This document shows, one piece after another, positions 35,250 through 44,710 of a stretch of 64,000 bases of DNA. How positions within the stretch are numbered: position 1 is the first letter of the stretch; every line of letters begins with the position of its first letter. The notes under the pieces were generated by a model. That model was not told the origin of the DNA and did not search any database. It saw only the letters and a program-made list of their open reading frames with translations. This DNA is from an uncultured Lachnospiraceae bacterium (lineage in GTDB: Bacteria > Bacillota > Clostridia > Lachnospirales > Lachnospiraceae): NCBI GenBank assembly GCA_949132985.1, contig CASCGD010000003.1:1147-65146 (forward strand), written 5' to 3'. The translations under genes were made by a program, and so were the position numbers.

Positions 35250-35552
35250 ATGGAAGTTGTATATGATAGAGGCTACATGCGCGAAGCTATGTCGGAGGCG
35301 GAACAGAAAAGTATTTCTTCCTGCGTCAACACGATTGCGTCCACTGCATATGGAACCGTGCCGTATGCACGGGAAATGGGGCTGAAACAGATATTGCCGC
35401 GGAATAATTCTGAAATGGCAAAGAATGAATATGCGACAGAGCTCGTGGATGCTGTTGAGAGCTGGGAGGAGCGGGTGGGTGTAAAAGAAGTTATATTTGA
35501 GGAGAATTGTGAAGTGAAGGTGGTGGTTGAATATGGCGGGCAGCTCGATTGA
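35250..35552 (+). CDS. Baseplate wedge gp25/gpW-like
   Basis: T..GTVPY.REMG...WE.R. Confidence 0.8.
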   Translation: MEVVYDRGYMREAMSEAEQKSISSCVNTIASTAYGTVPYAREMGLKQILPRNNSEMAKNEYATELVDAVESWEERVGVKEVIFEENCEVKVVVEYGGQLD

Positions 35553-36687
35553 AAATTTGCCGGAGATATCGATTTTAGATGATGAAGGAATCACTCTCGA
35601 ATCAATACAAAACGAGATGATCTCTGACTATGAACAGCGATATCAAGAGATAACCGGGCAGGAAATCGCATTGCATCCGGCAGACGAAGACCGGATTAAA
35701 CTCATGGTGGTAGCGGGAATGTATTATCAACTATGCGTTATCATGAATGAAAATTATAAAATGAACTTTTTGCCAAACATGTATGGCGACAGGTTGAAAA
35801 ACTGGGCGGCAAATTTTGGATTTGTGGAAGATGGCGTAAGGCGGGCGACGGTGACCTTGCGCTTTTTTGCATCTAAAATACAGGAGTTTGCTATAGGGAT
35901 ACCGCAGGGGACACGGGCGACTGCCGGAGACAGTATTTTTTTTGCTACAGATGAATATGCGGAAATACTGCCGGGCGAAGAGTACGTGGATGTGCCCGCT
36001 ACATGCACGCAGGATGGAAAGGCCGGAAATGAGTATCAGGCCGGGAAGATAGAAATACTCGTCGATCCGGTAAATATGATACGTGGAGTAGTCAATGTTT
36101 CTGACAGCGACGGCGGCCATGATGCGTACACAGACGATGAGTTAAGAGAGCTGGTATTAAATTTCCCGTCTACGTATTCGACCGCAGGCCCGGAAGAAGG
36201 GTATATACAGCTTGTCAGGCAATGCAGCGACCGGATTGTAAGCGTGAGGAAAATTGAAGCGGAAGAAGCGGTCGTCAGGATGTGCATTATGTGCGAAGGA
36301 GGAAAGATCCCGGATGAAGATTATTGCGAACAGATATTGCAGCGCATCAAGGCTTTAAAGTGCACGCCGGATACGGACAAAGTTGAAATTGTCGCTCCCG
36401 AGGTTATCGAGTACGAACTGGATATAACCTACTATATTTCCGAGGATAAGAAGGATATTGCAGAGTCTATTAAAACGGGCGTCGGGGAGGCTGTGGTATC
36501 TTTTACCGAATTTACGCAGGAAAATATAGGGCATGATATAAATCCGGATATCTTGACGGCGTATACAAGTGCGGCAGGGGCAAGACGGATTGTAATTCAT
36601 GCGCCGGAATACACCGTCATCAGGGAAAACCAGATTGCGATATGTAAATTAGTAGATGTGAAATACGGAGGGCTGGAGCAGGACTGA
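35533..36687 (+). CDS. Baseplate J-like protein
   Basis: IPQGTR, G..GN, GG.D..TD.ELR, STAGP. Confidence 0.92.
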   Translation: MAGSSIENLPEISILDDEGITLESIQNEMISDYEQRYQEITGQEIALHPADEDRIKLMVVAGMYYQLCVIMNENYKMNFLPNMYGDRLKNWAANFGFVEDGVRRATVTLRFFASKIQEFAIGIPQGTRATAGDSIFFATDEYAEILPGEEYVDVPATCTQDGKAGNEYQAGKIEILVDPVNMIRGVVNVSDSDGGHDAYTDDELRELVLNFPSTYSTAGPEEGYIQLVRQCSDRIVSVRKIEAEEAVVRMCIMCEGGKIPDEDYCEQILQRIKALKCTPDTDKVEIVAPEVIEYELDITYYISEDKKDIAESIKTGVGEAVVSFTEFTQENIGHDINPDILTAYTSAAGARRIVIHAPEYTVIRENQIAICKLVDVKYGGLEQD

Positions 36688-36688
36688 T

Positions 36689-37363
36689 ATGTATGATATT
36701 GGAGATGCAGGAGGGTTGTATGCTTCCATGCCGTCGAATATGCAGGATGAAAAAACAGATGCATTTTGTTTTGCAGTCGAACGTCAGGCGGGACGGATCA
36801 GAAATCTATTGCAAAAATTGAACGTGTGGAGCGATCTGGACCATGTAAAGCCAGGCCATTATGATTATGTTGCGGCATGTCTGAGGGCGCTTTATTACAG
36901 ATCAGATTTGCCGGATCATCAAAAACTGGCCGCAATTAAAAGTGCGATGATGACATACCGTTACGCTGGAAGCATGCGAGCAATCGAGGAGCTTTTAAAT
37001 AATGTTTTTTCGGAAGCGGAATTTATACCATGGTACGAATATGGCGGGAAGCCCTTCTGTTTTAAGGTCAAAACAAATGAGACATTGACAGAGAATAACA
37101 CGTCGTATTTTCTCAACATGATCAACAAAGTAAAAAGTGCGCGGGATAAGGTGGAGATAATAGAAGTCACCCGGATTACCCACCGCCCGATACACTCCGG
37201 AACCGGAGGGATTACGCACAGTAAATGTGTGATTTTGGATCATTTTAATGAGAAAAGAAGTACGCATGTCAGGCAGGGTGTCGGAATGGAGGCACAGAGA
37301 ATCCAAAGAAGCGCGATTGTGGCTGAGGATCTTTCTTCTCAAGTAGACACAAAAAATAGGTAA
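36689..37363 (+). CDS. Baseplate wedge / tail protein I
   Basis: PWYEYGGKPF.F...N.VKSAR. Confidence 0.85.
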   Translation: MYDIGDAGGLYASMPSNMQDEKTDAFCFAVERQAGRIRNLLQKLNVWSDLDHVKPGHYDYVAACLRALYYRSDLPDHQKLAAIKSAMMTYRYAGSMRAIEELLNNVFSEAEFIPWYEYGGKPFCFKVKTNETLTENNTSYFLNMINKVKSARDKVEIIEVTRITHRPIHSGTGGITHSKCVILDHFNEKRSTHVRQGVGMEAQRIQRSAIVAEDLSSQVDTKNR

Positions 37364-37381
37364 AGGGGGAATGGAAATAAC

Positions 37382-38155
37382 ATGGCAGATTTTAATAATG
37401 CTATCATGACAGACAGCGGCGCGGCACTTTTGGCAAAAGACACTGCCGGTGTCGCTCGAATTAAATTTACCAAGCTGGTAACCGGTTCAGGAGTTTACGC
37501 AGAATCTGAAAAAGCAAGGGAGAATTTACAGTCTTGTACGGGCCTGAAAGAACCAAAGCAGGAGATCCCTTTTTCTTCTATTTCAATGGAAACCGATACA
37601 TGTGTAAAACTTGTTGCGCTTATTTCGAATGCAGAACTTACGACCGGGTATTATGTAAATGAAGTTGGTGTATATGCAGTTGATGAGATGAACGAAGACG
37701 CGGAGCCGGTGCTTTATTCCATCGCGGTTGCAAATATAGCGGATTATTTGCCGCCATATAACGGATTGGTGACATCTACAATCACGCAGGAATATTTTGC
37801 GACGGTAGATAATGCGCTTGAAGTCACAATCCAGACAAACGCCGGGGCCGTGGCTCTTGCGGAAGATTTAGAAGCACTGAAGCAGGAAGTTGACGGGAAA
37901 CAGGATGCAGTTAAGGGGAAAGGGCTGTCAACAGAGGATTATACAACAGACGAAAAACAGAAGCTCGCCGGGATCGATAAAGGTGCAAATAAAACAATTA
38001 TAGACACAGAACTGTCCCCGGAATCCGAAAACCCCGTACAAAACAAGGCAGTGGACGCCGCCATCAAGTCCCTTGGTGCAGCTGTTATTATCAGTGACAC
38101 CGCCCCAGACCGCACAGAAAATGTATTATGGGTAAAACCGGGAGGTAGCACATGA
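37382..38155 (+). CDS. Tail fibre base/stem protein with no apparent receptor-binding domain
   Basis: P2 gpH-like N-terminus (T..G..L.AK, NEVGVYA); GKGLSTEDYT.DEK.KL; ends ISDTAP...VLWVKP. Confidence 0.85.
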   Translation: MADFNNAIMTDSGAALLAKDTAGVARIKFTKLVTGSGVYAESEKARENLQSCTGLKEPKQEIPFSSISMETDTCVKLVALISNAELTTGYYVNEVGVYAVDEMNEDAEPVLYSIAVANIADYLPPYNGLVTSTITQEYFATVDNALEVTIQTNAGAVALAEDLEALKQEVDGKQDAVKGKGLSTEDYTTDEKQKLAGIDKGANKTIIDTELSPESENPVQNKAVDAAIKSLGAAVIISDTAPDRTENVLWVKPGGST

Positions 38156-39039
38156 GCATATTAATACCAAGCACAGAGCCGGGGGTATTGCAGGATGCGG
38201 AGACACTCAAGACGTATAATCCTGATATCGCGGCTTATGAGGAGTGCGATAGCGCGCTGATACCAGCAGATGGTGTTTGGCAGGAGGTATGGCCGGAGCA
38301 CCGGCAGGAGGTACATTATCTGATGCTCTATGACCGGGGCAATGAATGTATGGATGTCACTGGCGGATGGGAATATGTGCAAGAAGCCGGAATGCATAAC
38401 GCAGCATATATAGGCGAAGGAATTTGGCGTACAAAGCGAGAGATTGATTTTTCGGCCTATCCGAAAGGGATGGCGAACAGGCAGGCGCGCTTTATCTCTG
38501 GGTCAAGTCCTCGCAATTACACCTATATTTTCTCGCATGGCTCCTACCTGGAACCCGTGAACAAAAATAGCTATAAGGGATTTGTGTCATTTGACACAGA
38601 ATCCCCGACCAATTTTGTGCCATATATCTATGTATATAGCAATACTTATTATCCAACTACGAACAGAGGAGAAAGAAGGAGCGATTGTTTGTATATCTAT
38701 CATAATTACACCAGCTATTCGGAAACGGAAGAATATGTATATAGCCTTTGGGTGTATCAAGACGACGATTGGCAGACGTGGCTATCAAAGGCAGGGCTGG
38801 ACGCCGCATCTTATGACACACTCGATAGCGTGATGCAGGATGCGGCAGCTCTTGGCGTGCTGCTTGCATCAAGGCAAGCGGTGTCTTACATGATCTACCA
38901 GTGCACCGGTAGTGTTATGGTATCGGCTATCCAGTCAAAGGCATTTTTGGCGGCGCTGGAGGGTAGCCCATATAAGGACAAGATATATGCAAACGAGCAT
39001 TGGGACAAATTTTTGACGATGGTCGGGGTAGAGTTGTAA
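38152..39039 (+). CDS. Tail-tip protein 0 (no leader; ATGA-coupled to the stem gene)
   Basis: Shared N-module ending WQEVWP; LYDRGNECMDVTGGW. Confidence 0.75.
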   Translation: MSILIPSTEPGVLQDAETLKTYNPDIAAYEECDSALIPADGVWQEVWPEHRQEVHYLMLYDRGNECMDVTGGWEYVQEAGMHNAAYIGEGIWRTKREIDFSAYPKGMANRQARFISGSSPRNYTYIFSHGSYLEPVNKNSYKGFVSFDTESPTNFVPYIYVYSNTYYPTTNRGERRSDCLYIYHNYTSYSETEEYVYSLWVYQDDDWQTWLSKAGLDAASYDTLDSVMQDAAALGVLLASRQAVSYMIYQCTGSVMVSAIQSKAFLAALEGSPYKDKIYANEHWDKFLTMVGVEL

Positions 39040-39050
39040 GGAGGAATTAT

Positions 39051-39080
39051 ATGTGTAAGGTTTTTAAGGGGGGGGGGTAA
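39051..39080 (+). promoter_or_regulatory. Leader ORF 1 (MCKVFKGGG*) with G10 tract at 39068-39077
   Basis: AAGGAGG RBS, ATG 39051, TAA directly after the tract. Confidence 0.8.
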
Positions 39081-39107
39081 AACCCCGCGCAGCGCCGCAG
39101 GTGGCGT

Positions 39108-39752
39108 ATGGCAGTAATGGTATGGGACAGCAACAGCCAGGCGTTTGCAGATGCAGAGCCGCCGCTTGCCTATAATCAGCAGCTTGACGCATGGCAGGAG
39201 ACAGAGGGCAATCTGTACAATCCTGGCATTGAGGCGTGGGAAAAGGTGTGGCCAGCAGATGTAAAAGTATATATGGATGCAACCCTTGGATGGCCGCTGG
39301 CAGATGGGCAGACGCTTGGGGCAGACGGATTTGCCCGTCAGAATGCAGACGGGTCGTATACGATCCGGGCGCAGGACGACTCACATACGGTAGTCGGGTG
39401 TAAGGGCATCACATTTGAGCCGCCACAGGGACGCTCTAAGATACACATGACGCTTGACAGTTATAGCCGGAACAATGTCGGGGGCACAAATAACTATGTT
39501 GCTGTCTATGTTGTTGCAAGTAATGTATTAGAGCAAGCCTCGATAGACGCGGCGCAGATCGTATTTAATTCTGTCGCAAAAGGAACTGGCCGTGGCGACG
39601 AAACCGAGCCGGTAGAGATAGGGAAGGATACTGTTATTGATATCAGCCAATACAAATCGTACAGATATTTTTGTATCGGCACATCAACTGGTAGTGGGGG
39701 ATGGTCTACGGGCTGGACGGAGATCACGGTTAGCAATATATATTTTGAGTAA
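39108..39752 (+). CDS. Variable tail-tip protein 1
   Basis: Shared ~48-aa N-module ending AWEKVWP; divergent beta-rich C-domain. Confidence 0.8.
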   Translation: MAVMVWDSNSQAFADAEPPLAYNQQLDAWQETEGNLYNPGIEAWEKVWPADVKVYMDATLGWPLADGQTLGADGFARQNADGSYTIRAQDDSHTVVGCKGITFEPPQGRSKIHMTLDSYSRNNVGGTNNYVAVYVVASNVLEQASIDAAQIVFNSVAKGTGRGDETEPVEIGKDTVIDISQYKSYRYFCIGTSTGSGGWSTGWTEITVSNIYFE

Positions 39753-39765
39753 AGGAGGGAAATAT

Positions 39766-39858
39766 ATGTGTAAAATCAGATCGGGGGGGGTAAAACCTCG
39801 CGCGGCGCCGCAGGTGCGGTATGCCGTTAGTATGGAACAATCGGCTGCAGGCCTTTGA
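39766..39858 (+). promoter_or_regulatory. Leader ORF 2 (MCKIRSGGVKP...) with G8 tract at 39783-39790
   Basis: AAAGGAGG RBS; overlaps the tip ATG out of frame. Confidence 0.8.
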
Positions 39859-40444
39859 GGAGTCGGAGCTGCCGCTTACCTACAATCCTGCCGTAGATGC
39901 ATGGCAGGACACGGAGGGCCTTGTATACAACCACGAGCTGGATGCGTGGGAAAAAGTCTGGCCGGAAATTATCTATTTTGTCAAAAACGGCGTACCGCAA
40001 GCAGGATATACCTGGGCGGACACCTACAAAGGAAATGACGGGAATGCTGGAAGTTATTCCGCGCGGACAGACGGAGATTATTTTGCCCTGTCTGTTAGCG
40101 GGACTGCCACAGCTGGCAAAATGATTGTGTTCCCCGCAATTGAAAAGGCGGGGACATTATGTGCGGAAGATATTGCGGTTACTGCTACGCATGGTAACAA
40201 CCATGTACATTTTGGCTTTGCGCGCGTTGACAGCGCTGGAAAGACAATTATATACGGCGAGGTAGCGGGTGGGTCCAGCGGGTGGGCGTATTGCCTGCCG
40301 CCTAACAGCACCGGAGGCAGCATAGACATATTGCAAAATGAGTTGTCTGCGGGCAGCTGCCCGAAACTTGGGATCTACTGCAACAATTATTATGGATTTT
40401 CCGGCACGCTGCAGATCCGGAATCTCTATTTTGTACCTAATTAA
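39821..40444 (+). CDS. Variable tail-tip protein 2
   Basis: Shared N-module; divergent C-domain. Confidence 0.8.
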   Translation: MPLVWNNRLQAFEESELPLTYNPAVDAWQDTEGLVYNHELDAWEKVWPEIIYFVKNGVPQAGYTWADTYKGNDGNAGSYSARTDGDYFALSVSGTATAGKMIVFPAIEKAGTLCAEDIAVTATHGNNHVHFGFARVDSAGKTIIYGEVAGGSSGWAYCLPPNSTGGSIDILQNELSAGSCPKLGIYCNNYYGFSGTLQIRNLYFVPN

Positions 40445-40457
40445 GGGAGGGAAATAT

Positions 40458-40550
40458 ATGTGTAAAATAAGATCGGGGGGGGTAAACCTCCGCGGGCATC
40501 CGCAGGTGCGGTATGCCGTTAATATGGGACAAACAATTACAGGCGTTTAG
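40458..40550 (+). promoter_or_regulatory. Leader ORF 3 (MCKIRSGGVNL...) with G8 tract at 40475-40482
   Basis: GGGAGG RBS; overlaps the tip ATG out of frame. Confidence 0.8.
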
Positions 40551-41151
40551 AGAGTCAGGGACGCCGCTGGCCTACAACCCTGGGCTGGGAGCATGGCAGG
40601 AAACCGAAGGATGTGTTTATAACTCGCAGCTGGGTGCATGGGAAAAAGTCTGGCCAGGCGAATTATATCTGTACAAGGACGGTGACGAGTGCACGGATAT
40701 TACAGGCGGATGGAAATATCAGCCTTACAATTATTATTCATCAGCATTTACCTGCAAAATGCCAACTATCGAAAGGAGGGCCGACAGCCTATATACAAGG
40801 CTGGTATTTGGACGATCGTTTAATTGCGCTTTAATCGGCACAGCAAATATCATTGATACATCGCGCTACACAAAGATGTGTTGTGAGGTCTCGGGCACAT
40901 GCTCATCAACTAACGCGGCATGTTGGGGCGAAATAGCGGCTTTTGCTGGTGGATACAGCTATAATTATAAAAAACAATACGGATGTGAGATCTGTTACGG
41001 CGGATATGGAGGACACTATGCATCGTCCAATCACGCGCTGTTGGAACTTGATATAACTGATATCAGCAGTGCGGCATTTGCGATAGAGCATGTCTGTGAT
41101 TCGATTGCGGCCCCGGATTTTGTGCAATTATTTAAGTTATGGCTTGAGTAG
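40513..41151 (+). CDS. Variable tail-tip protein 3
   Basis: Shared N-module; LYKDGDECTDITGGW; ends KLWLE. Confidence 0.8.
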   Translation: MPLIWDKQLQAFRESGTPLAYNPGLGAWQETEGCVYNSQLGAWEKVWPGELYLYKDGDECTDITGGWKYQPYNYYSSAFTCKMPTIERRADSLYTRLVFGRSFNCALIGTANIIDTSRYTKMCCEVSGTCSSTNAACWGEIAAFAGGYSYNYKKQYGCEICYGGYGGHYASSNHALLELDITDISSAAFAIEHVCDSIAAPDFVQLFKLWLE

Positions 41152-41202
41152 GGATGCGCCGCATCTCTTTAATTTTACAAAAAAATGAAAGGAAGAGAAT
41201 TA

Positions 41203-41592
41203 ATGGGAAAAATCGTATTTGGCAACAAGGAAATTATCACACAAAGCGTATACCCATACGCGTACAGCAACGGAAAAGTAGTACTAAGGGTGTCAGCACG
41301 CGAAGAAGATGTGTCAGAGAATGACCTGAAACAGCTCAAAGACAATATGCTCCCGATTGAATACTATGAGTGCAAAACAGTCATGGACGCAGAGACGGGA
41401 GCTCTCACAGAAACGGATGCATGGGAACTGAAGGCAACCTATGATAACTACGACTCCGGCGAGTACGTATCATCCTACAAGGACGGCGTATACTCCTGCG
41501 AGATAACGCGTGTGGGAGAAACAGAAAAGGCCGTCCGCAGGAACACGGCAGATATCGCCTATCTTGGTATCATGGCCGGGGTAGAGCTGTAA
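41203..41592 (+). CDS. XkdW-like tail fibre accessory protein
   Basis: Ends ADIAYLGIMAGVEL; lies near the XkdX-like gene. Confidence 0.6.
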   Translation: MGKIVFGNKEIITQSVYPYAYSNGKVVLRVSAREEDVSENDLKQLKDNMLPIEYYECKTVMDAETGALTETDAWELKATYDNYDSGEYVSSYKDGVYSCEITRVGETEKAVRRNTADIAYLGIMAGVEL

Positions 41593-41603
41593 GGAGGATA
41601 TAT

Positions 41604-41672
41604 ATGTGTAAGATTTTTAAGGGGGGGGGTAAAACCCCGCGCAGCGCCGCAGGTGATCTATGGCGTTGCTGA
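41604..41672 (+). promoter_or_regulatory. Leader ORF 4 (MCKIFKGGGKTPRSAAGDLWRC*) with G9 tract at 41621-41629
   Basis: AAGGAGG RBS; stop begins 10 nt after the A of the tip ATG. Confidence 0.8.
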
Positions 41673-42298
41673 TACCGGATGTCGCGGGTGTCTATATAGA
41701 TCAAAAGCCGCCGCTTATCTACAACCATCAGCTAGAGGCATGGCAGGACACCGAGGGATACGCGCATGACAATGCATTTGAGGCGTGGCGCAAGATCTGG
41801 CCGGAGAAGTTATATTTATATACGGATGGCGATGAGTGCGTAGATGTAACGGAAGGGTACGACGGAATTTATACAGAAACAGGCGCGTTTATCACAAAGG
41901 GCCCTGACTCCATAAAAATTTTTGCAGATCGTGGCGATGGTTGGAAACTTGCAAAATTCTGCTCAAGGAATAAGGTGGATTTTACAAAATACAAAAAGCT
42001 TCGTGCGGTTATGTCTGGCAGGGCATGGGATGTTGTCAGTCCAACTGGAACTATCTATAATTGCATTTCAGCACATATATCTTTCTTCCACACGTATTCC
42101 AATGAATGGGGAGATGGGCAGGATCTTGATGTGCCACAATCCATATTACCGTTTAATCAGACTCATAATTTTGAAATGCCGTACAAAGAGTATGTATTAA
42201 ATATTCCGGACGAAGCCGCATATATCGGATGGCGGTCACATGTTGGATTAACCGGAGGAAAGTATGAATTCCGCATCAAACAACTATGGCTGGAATAA
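41660..42298 (+). CDS. Variable tail-tip protein 4
   Basis: Shared N-module; LYTDGDECVDVTEG; ends KQLWLE. Confidence 0.8.
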   Translation: MALLIPDVAGVYIDQKPPLIYNHQLEAWQDTEGYAHDNAFEAWRKIWPEKLYLYTDGDECVDVTEGYDGIYTETGAFITKGPDSIKIFADRGDGWKLAKFCSRNKVDFTKYKKLRAVMSGRAWDVVSPTGTIYNCISAHISFFHTYSNEWGDGQDLDVPQSILPFNQTHNFEMPYKEYVLNIPDEAAYIGWRSHVGLTGGKYEFRIKQLWLE

Positions 42299-42326
42299 AT
42301 CAAACAAAGAAAGCGAGGAAAAGACC

Positions 42327-42467
42327 ATGAACGTAAAAGAATTAGCAAAGAAATATTATCCCACCTATTGGGATATCAACCGCATGCGCAATCTTGTAGC
42401 GGCAGGCAAGTTGTCTGAGGCAGACTATCAGGAGATCACAGGCAGTACATACCGCGCCACGGAGTAA
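42327..42467 (+). CDS. XkdX-family protein
   Basis: KKYY..YW......LV..GKLS..DYQEITG..Y. Confidence 0.85.
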   Translation: MNVKELAKKYYPTYWDINRMRNLVAAGKLSEADYQEITGSTYRATE

Positions 42468-42477
42468 GGAGGATTAG

Positions 42478-42546
42478 ATGTGTAAGATTTTTAGGGGGGG
42501 GGGTAAAGCACCCTCGCGCAGCGCCGCAGGTGCGGTATGCCGTTAA
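42478..42546 (+). promoter_or_regulatory. Leader ORF 5 (MCKIFRGGGKAPSRSAAGAVCR*) with G10 tract at 42494-42503
   Basis: AAGGAGG RBS; stop begins 7 nt after the A of the tip ATG. Confidence 0.8.
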
Positions 42547-43125
42547 TATGGGACAAACAATTAAAAGCATTTGTAGACACGGCTCCGCCGCTGCTCTACG
42601 ACCCGGCCATAGAGGCCTACGGAGATACCGAGGGTTATGTGCACGACAATGCACTTGAGGCTTGGCGCAAAGTCTGGCCCGCACGGCTGTATCTCTATCA
42701 TGAGGGTGGAGAGTGTGCAGGTATTACCGGTGGATGGGATGCGTATCCATACAAACTTACGGGATGGGGGGAGCGAGCTTGCGCCAACTCTGGTTAAAGG
42801 GGTATCCGATATGAGCGCATCAATGCAGAGCCCATATGCGGGAGCAGTAGCGACATGTGCCACCATACAGATAGACAGGTTTGGCAAGTTATGTGCTATA
42901 TGCTCTGGGAGCGCGCAGATACACTCGGGAGTTACGTTGTGTTTGGCACCGGTTATATCGGAAAGCCAACGAGAGGTTGCTGTATATTCCGTTATTGATA
43001 TGGGAACTACAAAAACAGATGAACAGATTATTGCAGATATATCGCAGATAAGCGGAAGCCAACATGTGATCTTTCGGATGGTTGCTAATTGTAATGTAAC
43101 AATCAAGCAAGTATGGCTTGAGTAA
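42537..43125 (+). pseudogene. Variable tail-tip protein 5, frameshifted at G6 (42766-42771)
   Basis: Removing one G joins 42537..42797 to 42637..43125, giving a product ending KQVWLE. Confidence 0.8.
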
Positions 43126-43178
43126 GGGGATGCGATCGCATCTCTTTCATTTTGTAAAAAGAGGGGAGGGAGATAATC

Positions 43179-43505
43179 ATGACCGTGGATATAAGCACGC
43201 TGATACTTGCTATGTCGATTCCGTCCGCTGTGACCGGTTTTTGCTTTTGGCTTATGGAGCGGCGCATCGAAAAGCGGGAAAAAGAAAGGGAACGGAAAGA
43301 GGCAATCCGGGAGAAGAGCGAGATACTTACTGTGAAAGGAATCGGCGCAGCGATCGCGCTGGGAGAAGCGACAGCGGAAGCAGTATCCAGAATACCGGAT
43401 ACGCATTGTAACGGCGACATGCATAAAGCGCTGGAATATGCCAGAAGCGTTAAGCATGAGCAAAAGGATTTCTTCGTTGAACAGGGAATCCATGAAATTT
43501 ATTGA
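43179..43505 (+). CDS. Holin-like / lysis-associated membrane protein
   Basis: N-terminal TM; CNGDMHKAL; lysis-cassette position. Confidence 0.65.
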   Translation: MTVDISTLILAMSIPSAVTGFCFWLMERRIEKREKERERKEAIREKSEILTVKGIGAAIALGEATAEAVSRIPDTHCNGDMHKALEYARSVKHEQKDFFVEQGIHEIY

Positions 43506-43519
43506 AGGAGGGAAAAATC

Positions 43520-43681
43520 GTGATCCAGATCACACAAATGAACGGAACATACAACGAATGGAAACCCGAACAGTACACTGATTATATGTATGATGGCAAG
43601 TGCTTTATCATTATGCGCGGTGAAAAATGGGTAGGAATCTATAACATGGATGCAATCAGGAGCATCGTAATCGACCAGTAA
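43520..43681 (+). CDS. Small hypothetical protein (53 aa)
   Basis: AAGGAGG RBS then GTG; hand-translated. Confidence 0.55.
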   Translation: MIQITQMNGTYNEWKPEQYTDYMYDGKCFIIMRGEKWVGIYNMDAIRSIVIDQ

Positions 43682-43695
43682 AGGGGGAAATCACA

Positions 43696-43935
43696 ATGAA
43701 AGGAATCAACTGGACAAGGAAACTCACGAGCCGCAAATTCTGGGCGGCAGTCACGTCGTTTGTCTCGATGATGATTATGGCCACAGGCGGCACACAGGGC
43801 ACCGCGGAGCAGATAACGGCGCTTATTATGGCGGGCGCATCGGTTGTGGCGTATATCGTCGCGGAGGGTCTTACGGATGCGGCAAACACTGCCGCTGCCG
43901 GCATCGAGATCGAGGAGGGAACCGATGAAAATTAA
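43696..43935 (+). CDS. Holin
   Basis: INW.RKLTSRKFW, two TM, YI.AEG..DA. Confidence 0.85.
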   Translation: MKGINWTRKLTSRKFWAAVTSFVSMMIMATGGTQGTAEQITALIMAGASVVAYIVAEGLTDAANTAAAGIEIEEGTDEN

Positions 43936-44710
43936 AATAAAACTTGCATCCAAACACAACTACGGAGGATGGCGGGATACAAAACAGATCAAATACATCG
44001 TCCTGCATTATACCGCGGTTGATGGAGACAGCGACGAGGGTAATGCAAGCTACTTTGCAAGGCCGCACGATCCCAAGACGTCGGCACATTATTTTGTGGA
44101 TGACGACTCAATTACGCAGTCCGCGCCAGATAATTACATTGCCTATGCAGTCGGCGGCAAGCGCTGGGAGGACTGCAGGCAGACCGGAGGCGGCAAACTC
44201 TACGGCAAGGCCACCAATGCCAACACAATCAATATCGAGATGTGCGACAGCAAAAAGGACGGTGTGATCATGGCGCAGCCTGCGACGATCACGCGCACGA
44301 TCAAGCTGGTACGCCTGCTGATGGACAAGTACAATATCGATATCGATCATGTGATCAGACACTTTGACGTCAACGGCAAGCACTGCCCGGCCTATTACAT
44401 GGATGCGGGAGCGTGGGCTGCATTTAAGGCGCGCATCCTTGGCTACAGGGCCGGCAACAAGTACAGGACGGCCAAGCCCTGCTATCTGCGCCTCTCACCT
44501 GCTGGCAAAAAGCTCACCTATGAGGAGGCACCGGATCACATCAAGGCAAAATCCATAAAAAAGAAGGGGTATATCTCCTTCAAAAAAGGCGCGATCTTCA
44601 AGCTTGTCGAAGTTGCCGAAAAGAACGGCGATCTCTGGGGCAGGATGAAAACCGGCTATTGGGTACCGCTGCGCTATAAGAGCGCCCTGCGGGCGATCAT
44701 CTGCAAATAG
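43925..44710 (+). CDS. Endolysin, N-acetylmuramoyl-L-alanine amidase (Amidase_2)
   Basis: YIVLHYT, SAHYFVD, IEMC, RHFDVNGKHCP. Confidence 0.93.
   Translation: MKIKIKLASKHNYGGWRDTKQIKYIVLHYTAVDGDSDEGNASYFARPHDPKTSAHYFVDDDSITQSAPDNYIAYAVGGKRWEDCRQTGGGKLYGKATNANTINIEMCDSKKDGVIMAQPATITRTIKLVRLLMDKYNIDIDHVIRHFDVNGKHCPAYYMDAGAWAAFKARILGYRAGNKYRTAKPCYLRLSPAGKKLTYEEAPDHIKAKSIKKKGYISFKKGAIFKLVEVAEKNGDLWGRMKTGYWVPLRYKSALRAIICK

Follow-up and report, generated by a model that had tools for sequence, protein, structure and literature searches.

In Klebsiella phages of the KP32/K11/KP34 type, an anchor-branch arrangement carries secondary receptor-binding proteins (RBPs), which dock through a peptide conserved at their N-termini (Latka et al. 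2019, PMC6872550; PMC13352976), and in the lactococcal P335 phages TP901-1 and Tuc2009, small jelly-roll-headed RBPs sit on an adapter in the BppU–BppL(–BppA) tripod (PMC4742702, PMC3186816). By analogy of function, these two are the closest parallels, neither of them sequence-related, to a locus that we describe here in a prophage of a mouse-gut Lachnospiraceae bacterium, in which a fibre stem gene is followed by six paralogous tip genes (tips 0–5), all on the + strand. The window, that is, the whole stretch of DNA that was analysed, comprises 64,000 nt of contig CASCGD010000003.1 of GCA_949132985.1 (positions 1,147–65,146, forward strand). We read the locus as that of a temperate phage with a contractile tail whose receptor-binding apparatus is modular and split, with separate tips and slippage-tuned leaders, a reading that we consider moderately probable.

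The locus resembles the Klebsiella arrangement in that one tail-attached anchor would serve separate RBPs with a short conserved N-terminal piece and exchangeable heads that set host range, docking in the prophage being a prediction. The two differ in that the heads here appear to be small jelly rolls like those of carbohydrate-binding modules (CBMs) instead of beta-helix depolymerases, in that there are six tips, not two, with five of them behind poly-G leaders, and in that no gp10-like domain was detected in the stem; Pfam and PHROG gave no match to a T4 gp10-like branching domain in either the stem or tip 0. RBPs of the BppL type are trimeric, with a piece for attachment at the N-terminus, then a neck and a jelly-roll head that binds saccharides, and Tuc2009 has a second carbohydrate-binding module. 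As in those systems, a phage of a Gram-positive host would here combine an adapter with separately encoded small RBPs; however, the lactococcal phages are siphoviruses with one RBP gene, whereas the prophage has a contractile-tail baseplate (baseplate J, P2-I) and six tips, and no Bpp protein gave a sequence or profile match at the locus.

Variable RBP use has its own precedents. According to Sorensen et al. 2021 (Cell Rep 35:109214), as cited in PMC12823448, hypermutable polyG tracts lie in RBP genes of Campylobacter phages, where host recognition varies within a phage population through reversible changes of frame (see also PMC10877375), and a preprint proposes that contingency loci are general in phages (bioRxiv 10.1101/2025.10.21.683753). 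The prophage likewise has G homopolymers tied to phage RBP genes, but its runs lie in a leader mini-ORF (a short open reading frame, ORF) outside the RBP coding sequence and could have an effect only via translational coupling; moreover, five genes would be gated in parallel, in a Gram-positive gut anaerobe. Neither the placement in a leader mini-ORF nor the parallel gating of five genes is described in the polyG and contingency-locus accounts cited here. The invertible fibre segments of Mu (G/Gin) and P1 (C/Cin), as cited in PMC12823448, also keep alternative distal fibre parts side by side under a stochastic heritable switch, which is what we propose here, but they use an invertase, inverted repeats, opposed cassettes and a variable part fused to a constant N-terminal part, whereas the tips of the prophage are separate, complete and in one orientation.

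A short fibre stem and the separate tips

The baseplate J and P2-I-like genes mark the locus, by their family matches, as the fibre position of a contractile-tail baseplate. The stem matched the tail-collar fibre N-terminal family PF12571 (E 5.8e-5, 23.6 bits against a cut-off of 23) and phrog_7037 ('tail fiber protein', E 2.6e-40), the latter over just positions 2–212 of the 480-position profile. Its C-terminal end reads ...AAVIISDTAPDRTENVLWVKPGGST, and the terminus ..VIISDTAPDRTENVLWVKPGGST follows the collar N-domain and a short shaft without a receptor domain. A first-pass annotation, made from the letters of the DNA alone, had described the fibre base as ending abruptly at ISDTAP...VLWVKP with no receptor domain, and the profile coverage, confined to the N-terminal part, together with a longer sister fibre of 432 aa, bears this out: the stem is not a full-length fibre with a distal receptor-binding part. 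That sister, the tail fibre of Roseburia phage Shimadzu (LR596903.1), was the best match to the stem among 50,697 phage records, with 74.7% identity over residues 1–170, and the two proteins part ways at about residue 166. Genes for Avd and a reverse transcriptase (RT) lie directly downstream of the Shimadzu fibre, which is therefore presumably the target of a diversity-generating retroelement (DGR). Thus, one scaffold presumably bears a DGR-targeted distal half in Shimadzu and a short, stopping shaft in this prophage. The gene position after baseplate J and P2-I is the same in both phages (LR596903.1 orf22–orf24), and for both a diversified distal fibre end is proposed; Shimadzu has a single fibre with Avd and RT, whereas the prophage has a short stem, no RT match in the genome and a separate tip bank. 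The fibre–Avd–RT region of Shimadzu spans LR596903.1 7001–10296, so that a DGR there and a tip bank here occupy the same fibre locus. A PDB sequence search with the stem gave no meaningful match.

The stem ends in the motif ..S.TAP....LWV.P, which takes the form ..V.VS.TQP......D[LIV]W[FIL]Q.. in homologues. Among 120 listed homologues of the C-terminal part of the stem, the motif lies within 20 residues of the end in 53 and is internal in none. In four longer fibres (722–804 aa), two or three copies of it form internal units of the shaft, with a coiled coil behind them. From these comparisons, the motif appears to be part of the shaft, in many cases the part with which the protein ends, and stopping short after the shaft appears as a family trait of such stems.

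Alignment of the tips gave 38–67% identity (mean 51%) over the 48-aa N-module of tips 1–5 and a mean of 24% over the C-domains, and the motif LY..G.EC...TGGW was found in tips 0, 3, 4 and 5. A shared N-module of about 48 aa, the LY..G.EC motif in four tips, highly divergent C-domains and similar C-terminal ends (KLWLE, KQLWLE, KQVWLE and NIYFE) had all been noted in the first-pass annotation and are present as stated; its six downstream tip ORFs likewise exist as described, except that tip 5 is not a single ORF but is split at a G6 run. Absent from that description were the interleaved orf135 and XkdX genes, the twin terminator-like hairpins behind tips 3 and 5 and the leaders of about 68 nt, with a mini-ORF and a G8–G10 run, that precede tips 1–5.

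Pfam, PHROG and NCBIfam hold no family for any tip. An N-module profile searched against 1.84 billion representative proteins retrieved 257 clusters at E ≤ 0.001, 80 of them at E ≤ 1e-10, and in nearly all of the 150 listed clusters the module occupies residues 1–70 of a protein of about 200 aa. The sole listed protein with an internal N-module part was P0137 (profile positions 38–73 at residues 288–323). The C-terminal end WLE, with at most one residue beyond it, occurs in 83 of the 149 N-module proteins inspected. On this profile evidence, the N-module defines an unannotated protein family of 257 clusters. The family consensus, M.VkIWDsa.gAFkdAETP / liYD...gAwkDttG / Lvyd..agAWeErWp, looks like three copies of a 15-aa unit, which would fit three hairpins in the structural model described next.

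The AlphaFold2 model of tip 3, built from a 12-sequence alignment, had a mean predicted local distance difference test (pLDDT) score of 82 and a predicted template modelling score (pTM) of 0.78. Residues 1–46 form six short strands in three pairs (beta-hairpins) at pLDDT 61–76, and a well-modelled beta-sandwich begins at about residue 50. In a VIA structure search, the model matched the carbohydrate-binding region of a xanthanase (6fhn; Z 12.2, root-mean-square deviation (rmsd) 3.1 Å, 145 aligned residues), CBM29 (Z 10.7, to 1gwk, and 10.0), CBM11, CBM86 and GH16 enzymes (Z about 10) and the lectin-like domain of tailspike 4 (TSP4) of phage CBA120 (Z 9.3). Foldseek also retrieved tailspike and fibre domains of Klebsiella phages and, in a viral library, uncharacterised and 'tail protein' gut-virome entries (best E 7e-10). 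The tip head is thus modelled as a CBM/lectin-type jelly roll, the fold that had been expected for the C-domains from the first reading, and tip heads presumably bind a cell-surface glycan.

Tip 0 stands apart. Behind a divergent N-module, only 25–33% identical to those of the other tips, it has a jelly-roll unit (LMLYDRGNECMDVTGGW...), and a helical domain with the end ..IYANEHWDKFLTMVGVEL makes up its C-terminal part. Its own strong ribosome site is located within the 3′ end of the stem gene, and the predicted ATGA coupling to the stem is seen as a stop/start overlap at 38152; tip 0 is probably always made. Its AlphaFold2 model was confident just for the helical part (pLDDT 80–95, residues ~200–290), with low confidence for the jelly-roll part. 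The best fold match, a weak one, was the alpha-superhelix of Gp22 (7qlr; Z 7.8, rmsd 2.9, 76 aligned), the receptor-binding protein of Clostridium difficile phage CDHS-1 (bioRxiv 10.1101/2021.07.05.451159). An ESM Atlas search with tip 0 gave no usable match.

A few long matches of the N-module search align just at the start of the jelly roll (LY..GDEC..TGGW) and hold several tandem jelly-roll units, some alternating with the tip 0-type helical domain. The unit (LY..GDEC..TGGW ... WLE) stands in tandem in P0052, P0071, P0144, P0125 and P0151, proteins of up to 1,280 aa, and alternates with the tip 0-type helical domain in P0052 (1,052 aa) and P0071 (1,042 aa). The separate tips therefore have covalently chained counterparts, since jelly-roll units occur in tandem within single database proteins. 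In P0151 the chain runs from a tip 0-type C-terminal end straight into a jelly-roll unit, a faint hint that a further head may sit beyond tip 0.

The tip family is rare in reference genomes. Of 400 genomes sampled from the same bacterial family, a whole-genome hidden Markov model search found it in one, genome G223; the 398 genomes of the class that were scored (2 others were unscored) had no match, nor had the other genome of the G223 genus. Tip alignments retrieved no related loci, and the leader DNA pattern no relatives, from IMG/VR and JGI metagenomes; tblastn with tip 3 gave zero matches in the 50,697 phage records, and a PDB sequence search with the tip profile gave nothing meaningful. 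In GTDB species genomes, searched with a narrow pattern only, 5 distant loci had a jelly-roll unit or tip 0-type genes and no tip arrays. Homologues of tip 0 were found after XkdX in G223 and, as a tandem pair of genes, in a genome of Clostridia from the caecum of roe deer (locus L017). In L017 (4994–7723), a 375-aa protein of two internal repeats precedes the tandem tip 0-type genes (266 and 261 aa), which are without an N-module, and the ribosome site AAGGGGGGGA (G7) lies upstream of the second.

The same folds and gene order bear on whether the tips belong to the virion. CBM folds occur in wall-binding proteins too, no tip has a family annotation and the array lies directly upstream of lysis genes, as would suit accessory (moron-like) carbohydrate-binding proteins such as cell-wall-binding lysis helpers or exclusion factors. 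Yet the array begins in translational overlap with the stem and includes the fibre-module gene XkdX, the stem calls for a partner that binds the receptor, tail proteins are the closest viral matches in structure and, in G223, the N-terminal part of the tip is inherited along with the stem end, and we regard an accessory role as very improbable. XkdX is typical of PBSX-like fibre modules (XkdV–XkdW–XkdX).

G-run leaders ahead of tips 1–5

Each of tips 1–5 is preceded by a conserved leader of about 68 nt in which the stop codon of the upstream gene is followed by a strong GGAGG, a mini-ORF opening with ATG TGT AAR RTN.. (MCKI/V), a G-run (G10, G8, G8, G9 and G10 for tips 1–5), a TAA and a GC-rich hairpin that covers the tip ATG and holds an invariant CCGCAGGTG. 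The tip ATG has only a weak site of its own, AGGTG, 4 nt upstream. Five of the six runs of at least seven G in the window sit in these leaders. The sixth, a G8 at 1282–1289, lies in the AT-rich DNA that separates divergent genes, with an ATG at 1303 about 14 nt downstream, and may be a ribosome site or a slippage-prone control point of the prophage early region.

The length of the G-run sets where the mini-ORF stops: 30–33 nt before the tip ATG ('short'), 7–10 nt after it ('mid') or 35–119 nt into the tip gene ('long'). All three states were observed, with tip 1 short (stop 30 nt ahead of the tip ATG), tips 2 and 3 long (in leader 2, the stop begins 35 nt past the ATG) and tips 4 and 5 mid (stops beginning 10 nt and 7 nt past the ATG, respectively). 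The TAA behind each run, 30 or 33 nt upstream of the tip ATG, is in the tip frame; a fusion of mini-ORF and tip is thus out of reach at any run length, and its formation by slippage was rejected on this ground. A possible 'mid' stop is retained in 5/5 leaders through four codon solutions (TAA, TAG and TGA, and in tip 1 as TAATG), and the maintenance of this stop by varied codons suggests that termination beside the start codon matters. Base pairing at the tip starts was 0.57–0.66 against a mean of 0.47, above the median of 56 other gene starts of the window in 5/5 cases, and leader 3 has the hairpin that pairs its tip ATG most strongly. This pairing gives modest support, because 7–29% of the controls match it and the five leaders are homologous.

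These features suggest how the parts might work together. The stem would act as an adapter, with its collar domain on the baseplate and its shaft ending in the ..S.TAP....LWV.P motif in place of a receptor domain; the N-module would form a trimerising neck and the attachment piece for the stem end, and the CBM-like head would bind a cell-surface glycan. Tip 0 is coupled to the stem in translation and would probably be a constant product. For tips 1–5, the leader would provide the sole strong ribosome site while the hairpin covers the weak AGGTG and the tip ATG, such that translation of the mini-ORF would bring in ribosomes and open the hairpin, and the length of the G-run would tune the hand-over to the tip start. 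Slippage in the run would shift the mini-ORF stop among its three places and thereby turn each tip up or down, independently and reversibly, and the virions of one lysogen lineage would then differ in their tip sets, hedging host range. More tentatively, and at less than even odds, we propose the full form of this scheme, in which five tips are each gated by a leader poly-G tract with three coupling levels, giving up to 3^5 heritable, reversible combinations on a common stem, as a slippage counterpart of the Shimadzu DGR.

Run-length variation was seen in coding sequence. Tip 5 is broken at its G6 run, and one G fewer yields an intact 195-aa protein ending in KQVWLE; database protein P0008 (195 aa) is identical to both halves of tip 5 and reads through with one G fewer. 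The intact form is found on 2 contigs and the split halves on 2 and 3 contigs from other assemblies, both forms being on independent contigs. In the tip genes of the G223 prophages, a G-run follows MPLIYSAEAGAFVEAETPRISM inside the coding sequence. The frame would be kept by G8, but the two prophages have G9 and G7, one G too many and one too few, and both tips are therefore off. P0060 has the N-terminus of a G223-type tip that is readable only with G10, and P0040 is an in-frame allele. A G-run in RBP coding sequence that sets the frame, met in G223 and, as a short G6, in tip 5, is distinct from the leader form of the window; the G223 relative shows the classical in-gene polyG form, as in Campylobacter phages. 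That two lineages of one tip family have long G-runs, each at a different place, suggests that the runs are selected for.

The broken genes invite a different account, in which the array is decaying duplication debris with tip 0 alone functional, and the tip 5 frameshift and odd leaders are marks of pseudogenisation. It can claim the frameshift in tip 5 and the out-of-frame state of both poly-G tips in G223, but four tips are intact over more than 200 codons each despite heads at about 24% identity, N-modules and WLE ends are conserved across 257 clusters, and the tip 5 frameshift amounts to a single G in a run of which intact copies exist. Of the accounts considered here, we give debris the least credence.

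A stronger competitor takes the tips to be all co-made into one multivalent or branched adhesion device, with the leaders as ordinary coupling elements and the G-runs as a conserved part of the hairpin that does no switching. All tips but tip 5 are intact ORFs, the G-run is able to pair with the following CCCC or CCTC in 5/5 leaders, no length variation was observed in the leader runs, each known from one copy, and multi-RBP phages are well documented (PMC6872550, PMC10253068). What speaks against co-production as the whole explanation is that the five leaders are in three reading states despite conserved flanks, that a run of at least eight G is retained in 5/5 while the adjoining mini-ORF codons differ, that the related lineage has in-gene runs able to act only as on/off frameshifts, and that the tip 5 run is polymorphic between otherwise identical copies. 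We consider such a device unlikely.

Other switching mechanisms were considered and rejected. All tips are on the + strand, the inverted repeats of the region comprise only seven imperfect 16–22-nt pairs, none of which brackets tip genes, and profile searches found no Resolvase or Phage_integrase match on the contig of the window, which led us to reject an inversion switch; a DGR mechanism was rejected for want of an RVT_1 match across the whole genome (87% complete). The uniform orientation of the tips and the lack of a recombinase or reverse transcriptase, both pointed out in the first-pass annotation, thus stand with these scopes. A search of Rfam with positions 37000–44000 returned zero families at E ≤ 1. 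With G8–G10 runs in the leaders, tip choice is more likely a heritable slippage switch, and probably one of DNA slippage read out, as the leader sequences suggest, through the mini-ORF and its translation. The earlier proposal that tips are chosen at the level of translation is kept as regards the read-out and gives way to heritable slippage as regards a purely translational choice.

Possible docking, cassette borders and the origin of the array

Genome G223 has two prophages with unrelated stems, one a 282-aa collar fibre and the other a 504-aa collagen-like fibre, with an identical end, ..VEPGAQPRIGVPVYISATAPSNTDGLWVVPPET, in both and a tip gene behind each. When the DNA of the two loci was compared, homology was confined to two blocks, the remaining stem parts and the tip heads being different. 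Block 1 (94% identity) comprises the last 35 stem codons, the intergenic ribosome site and the N-terminal part of the tip up to ..AW.DVWP, and block 2 comprises XkdX and a tip 0-like gene. Stem end and tip start thus move as a unit between the G223 fibres, which is how the two halves of an interface should behave, although the same pattern would arise if the conserved segments were mere recombination arms. On these sequence grounds, it is plausible that tips dock on the stem through the N-module, and the G223 cassette favours the stem over tip 0 as the docking partner. The anatomy of a split fibre is itself well supported, with a headless stem and a modular family of tips that pair an N-module with a CBM-like head. 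The two G223 contigs (L011 11428–11985 on C49 and L012 11127–11684 on C27) both end inside the tip 0-like gene, where they are 94% identical; these ends look like an assembly break from the shared cassette, and the arrays there may be longer.

Several observations count against the reading of a split apparatus with slippage-tuned leaders. On the side of docking, hhalign found no similarity between stem C-terminal ends and tip N-modules, no stem–tip fusion was found among the 150 listed N-module matches or the four longer motif fibres, and the motif is an internal repeated shaft unit in those four fibres, so a docking role is not required of it; the N-module itself was modelled at just the pLDDT of 61–76 given above, and its three-fold repeat, seen by eye, was not significant in a profile self-comparison. 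On the side of the leaders, start pairing is moderately above the controls, of which 7–29% reach each value, the hairpins, leader 3 excepted, are not significant against shuffles, the length of each leader G-run is known from a single DNA copy, and homopolymer differences between assemblies can be sequencing errors.

Exchange between cassettes has left its own traces. P0002 joins a tip 5-like N-module to a tip 3-like head, and heads and N-modules are thus, as far as sequence comparison goes, exchanged among relatives. Within the array, the end of tip 0 with leader 1 is repeated at the end of orf135 with leader 4 (repeat D5, 88% over 67 nt), the last seven codons of orf135 (..MAGVEL) lying in the repeat; the orf135 and tip 0 proteins are alike in no more than the last 6 residues. 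A copy of the tip 3 end and its terminator stands after tip 5. The array accordingly appears to be made of two blocks, tips 0–3 with a terminator and orf135, tip 4, XkdX and tip 5 with another, and these appear to have been joined through the borders that they share in the tip 0–leader 1/orf135–leader 4 and terminator repeats. The twin hairpins, GGGATGCG..CGCATCTC plus a T-run, are near-identical and cut the tip array in two; if they terminate, the second block would require read-through or its own promoter. One promoter-like site (11/12) was seen at 42033–42061 within tip 4.

Such borders could mean that the array is a cassette bank used by recombination, with the N-module, leader, WLE end and twin terminators serving as homology arms for head swaps or for moves into an expressed slot. 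The repeats at cassette borders (D1–D5, D7 and D13), the P0002 chimera, the G223 mosaic and the sharing of only the last seven codons and the leader between orf135 and the tip 0 end all agree with this. By contrast, no cassette looks silent, as each comes with a ribosome site, a mini-ORF and a start codon of its own; all repeats are direct, so that intramolecular exchange would delete cassettes, not swap them; tip 0, the sole obviously expressed slot, has the N-module only 25–33% identical to the rest; and no recombinase gene lies on the contig. We find a working cassette bank improbable. Recombination between cassettes probably built the array, which is compatible with a split apparatus whose tips are tuned by leader slippage.

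The features of the locus are collected in Table 1. For the XkdX gene, the likely start is the ATG at 42327, whereas the ORF listing opens at 42264.

Table 1. Features of the stem and tip locus, in window coordinates.
Feature	Position	Strand	Details
Baseplate J	35527–36687	+	PF04865, E 1.6e-32; PHROG baseplate family
P2-I-like baseplate protein	36689–37363	+	PF09684, E 5.4e-11; PHROG baseplate family
Stem, 257 aa	37382–38155	+	PF12571 at residues 6–152; phrog_7037 profile positions 2–212 of 480
Tip 0, 295 aa	38152–39039	+	ATGA stop/start overlap with stem
Leader 1	39040–39107	+	GGAGG; mini-ORF ATG 39051; G10 at 39068–39077; TAA 39078–39080 ('short')
Tip 1, 214 aa	39108–39752	+	N-module and divergent beta-rich head; ends NIYFE
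Leader 2	39753–39820	+	Mini-ORF ATG 39766, end 39858; G8 at 39783–39790 ('long')
Tip 2, 207 aa	39821–40444	+	N-module and divergent head; ends NLYFVPN
Leader 3	40445–40512	+	Mini-ORF ATG 40458, end 40550; G8 at 40475–40482 ('long')
Tip 3, 212 aa	40513–41151	+	N-module and predicted CBM-type jelly roll; ends KLWLE
Terminator-like hairpin after tip 3	41150–41168	+	Repeats D7, D13; copy of hairpin after tip 5
orf135, 135-aa ORF unrelated to tips	41185–41592	+	No family match (Pfam, PHROG, NCBIfam)
Leader 4	41593–41659	+	Mini-ORF ATG 41604; G9 at 41621–41629 ('mid')
Tip 4, 212 aa	41660–42298	+	N-module and head; ends KQLWLE
XkdX-family small gene	42327–42467	+	PF09693, E 8.4e-8, 32.6 bits against cut-off 23.5
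Leader 5	42468–42536	+	Mini-ORF ATG 42478; G10 at 42494–42503 ('mid')
Tip 5	42537–43125	+	Split by +1 frameshift at G6 run 42766–42771
Terminator-like hairpin closing the array	43124–43147	+	Lysis genes come next

Meaning for gut phages

Little is understood of the host range of temperate phages of the gut, and phages of Lachnospiraceae have hardly been studied. Small tip proteins made of an attachment module and a CBM-like head are candidate RBPs that annotation pipelines have missed, and one fibre scaffold may be served either by a DGR, as in Shimadzu, or by a separate tip bank. If the leaders switch, phage contingency loci would extend from Campylobacter phages to Gram-positive gut phages, with a new read-out in which homopolymer slippage in a leader mini-ORF acts via translational coupling. 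The pair of stem end and N-module would then offer a natural plug-in point for studying how host recognition changes.

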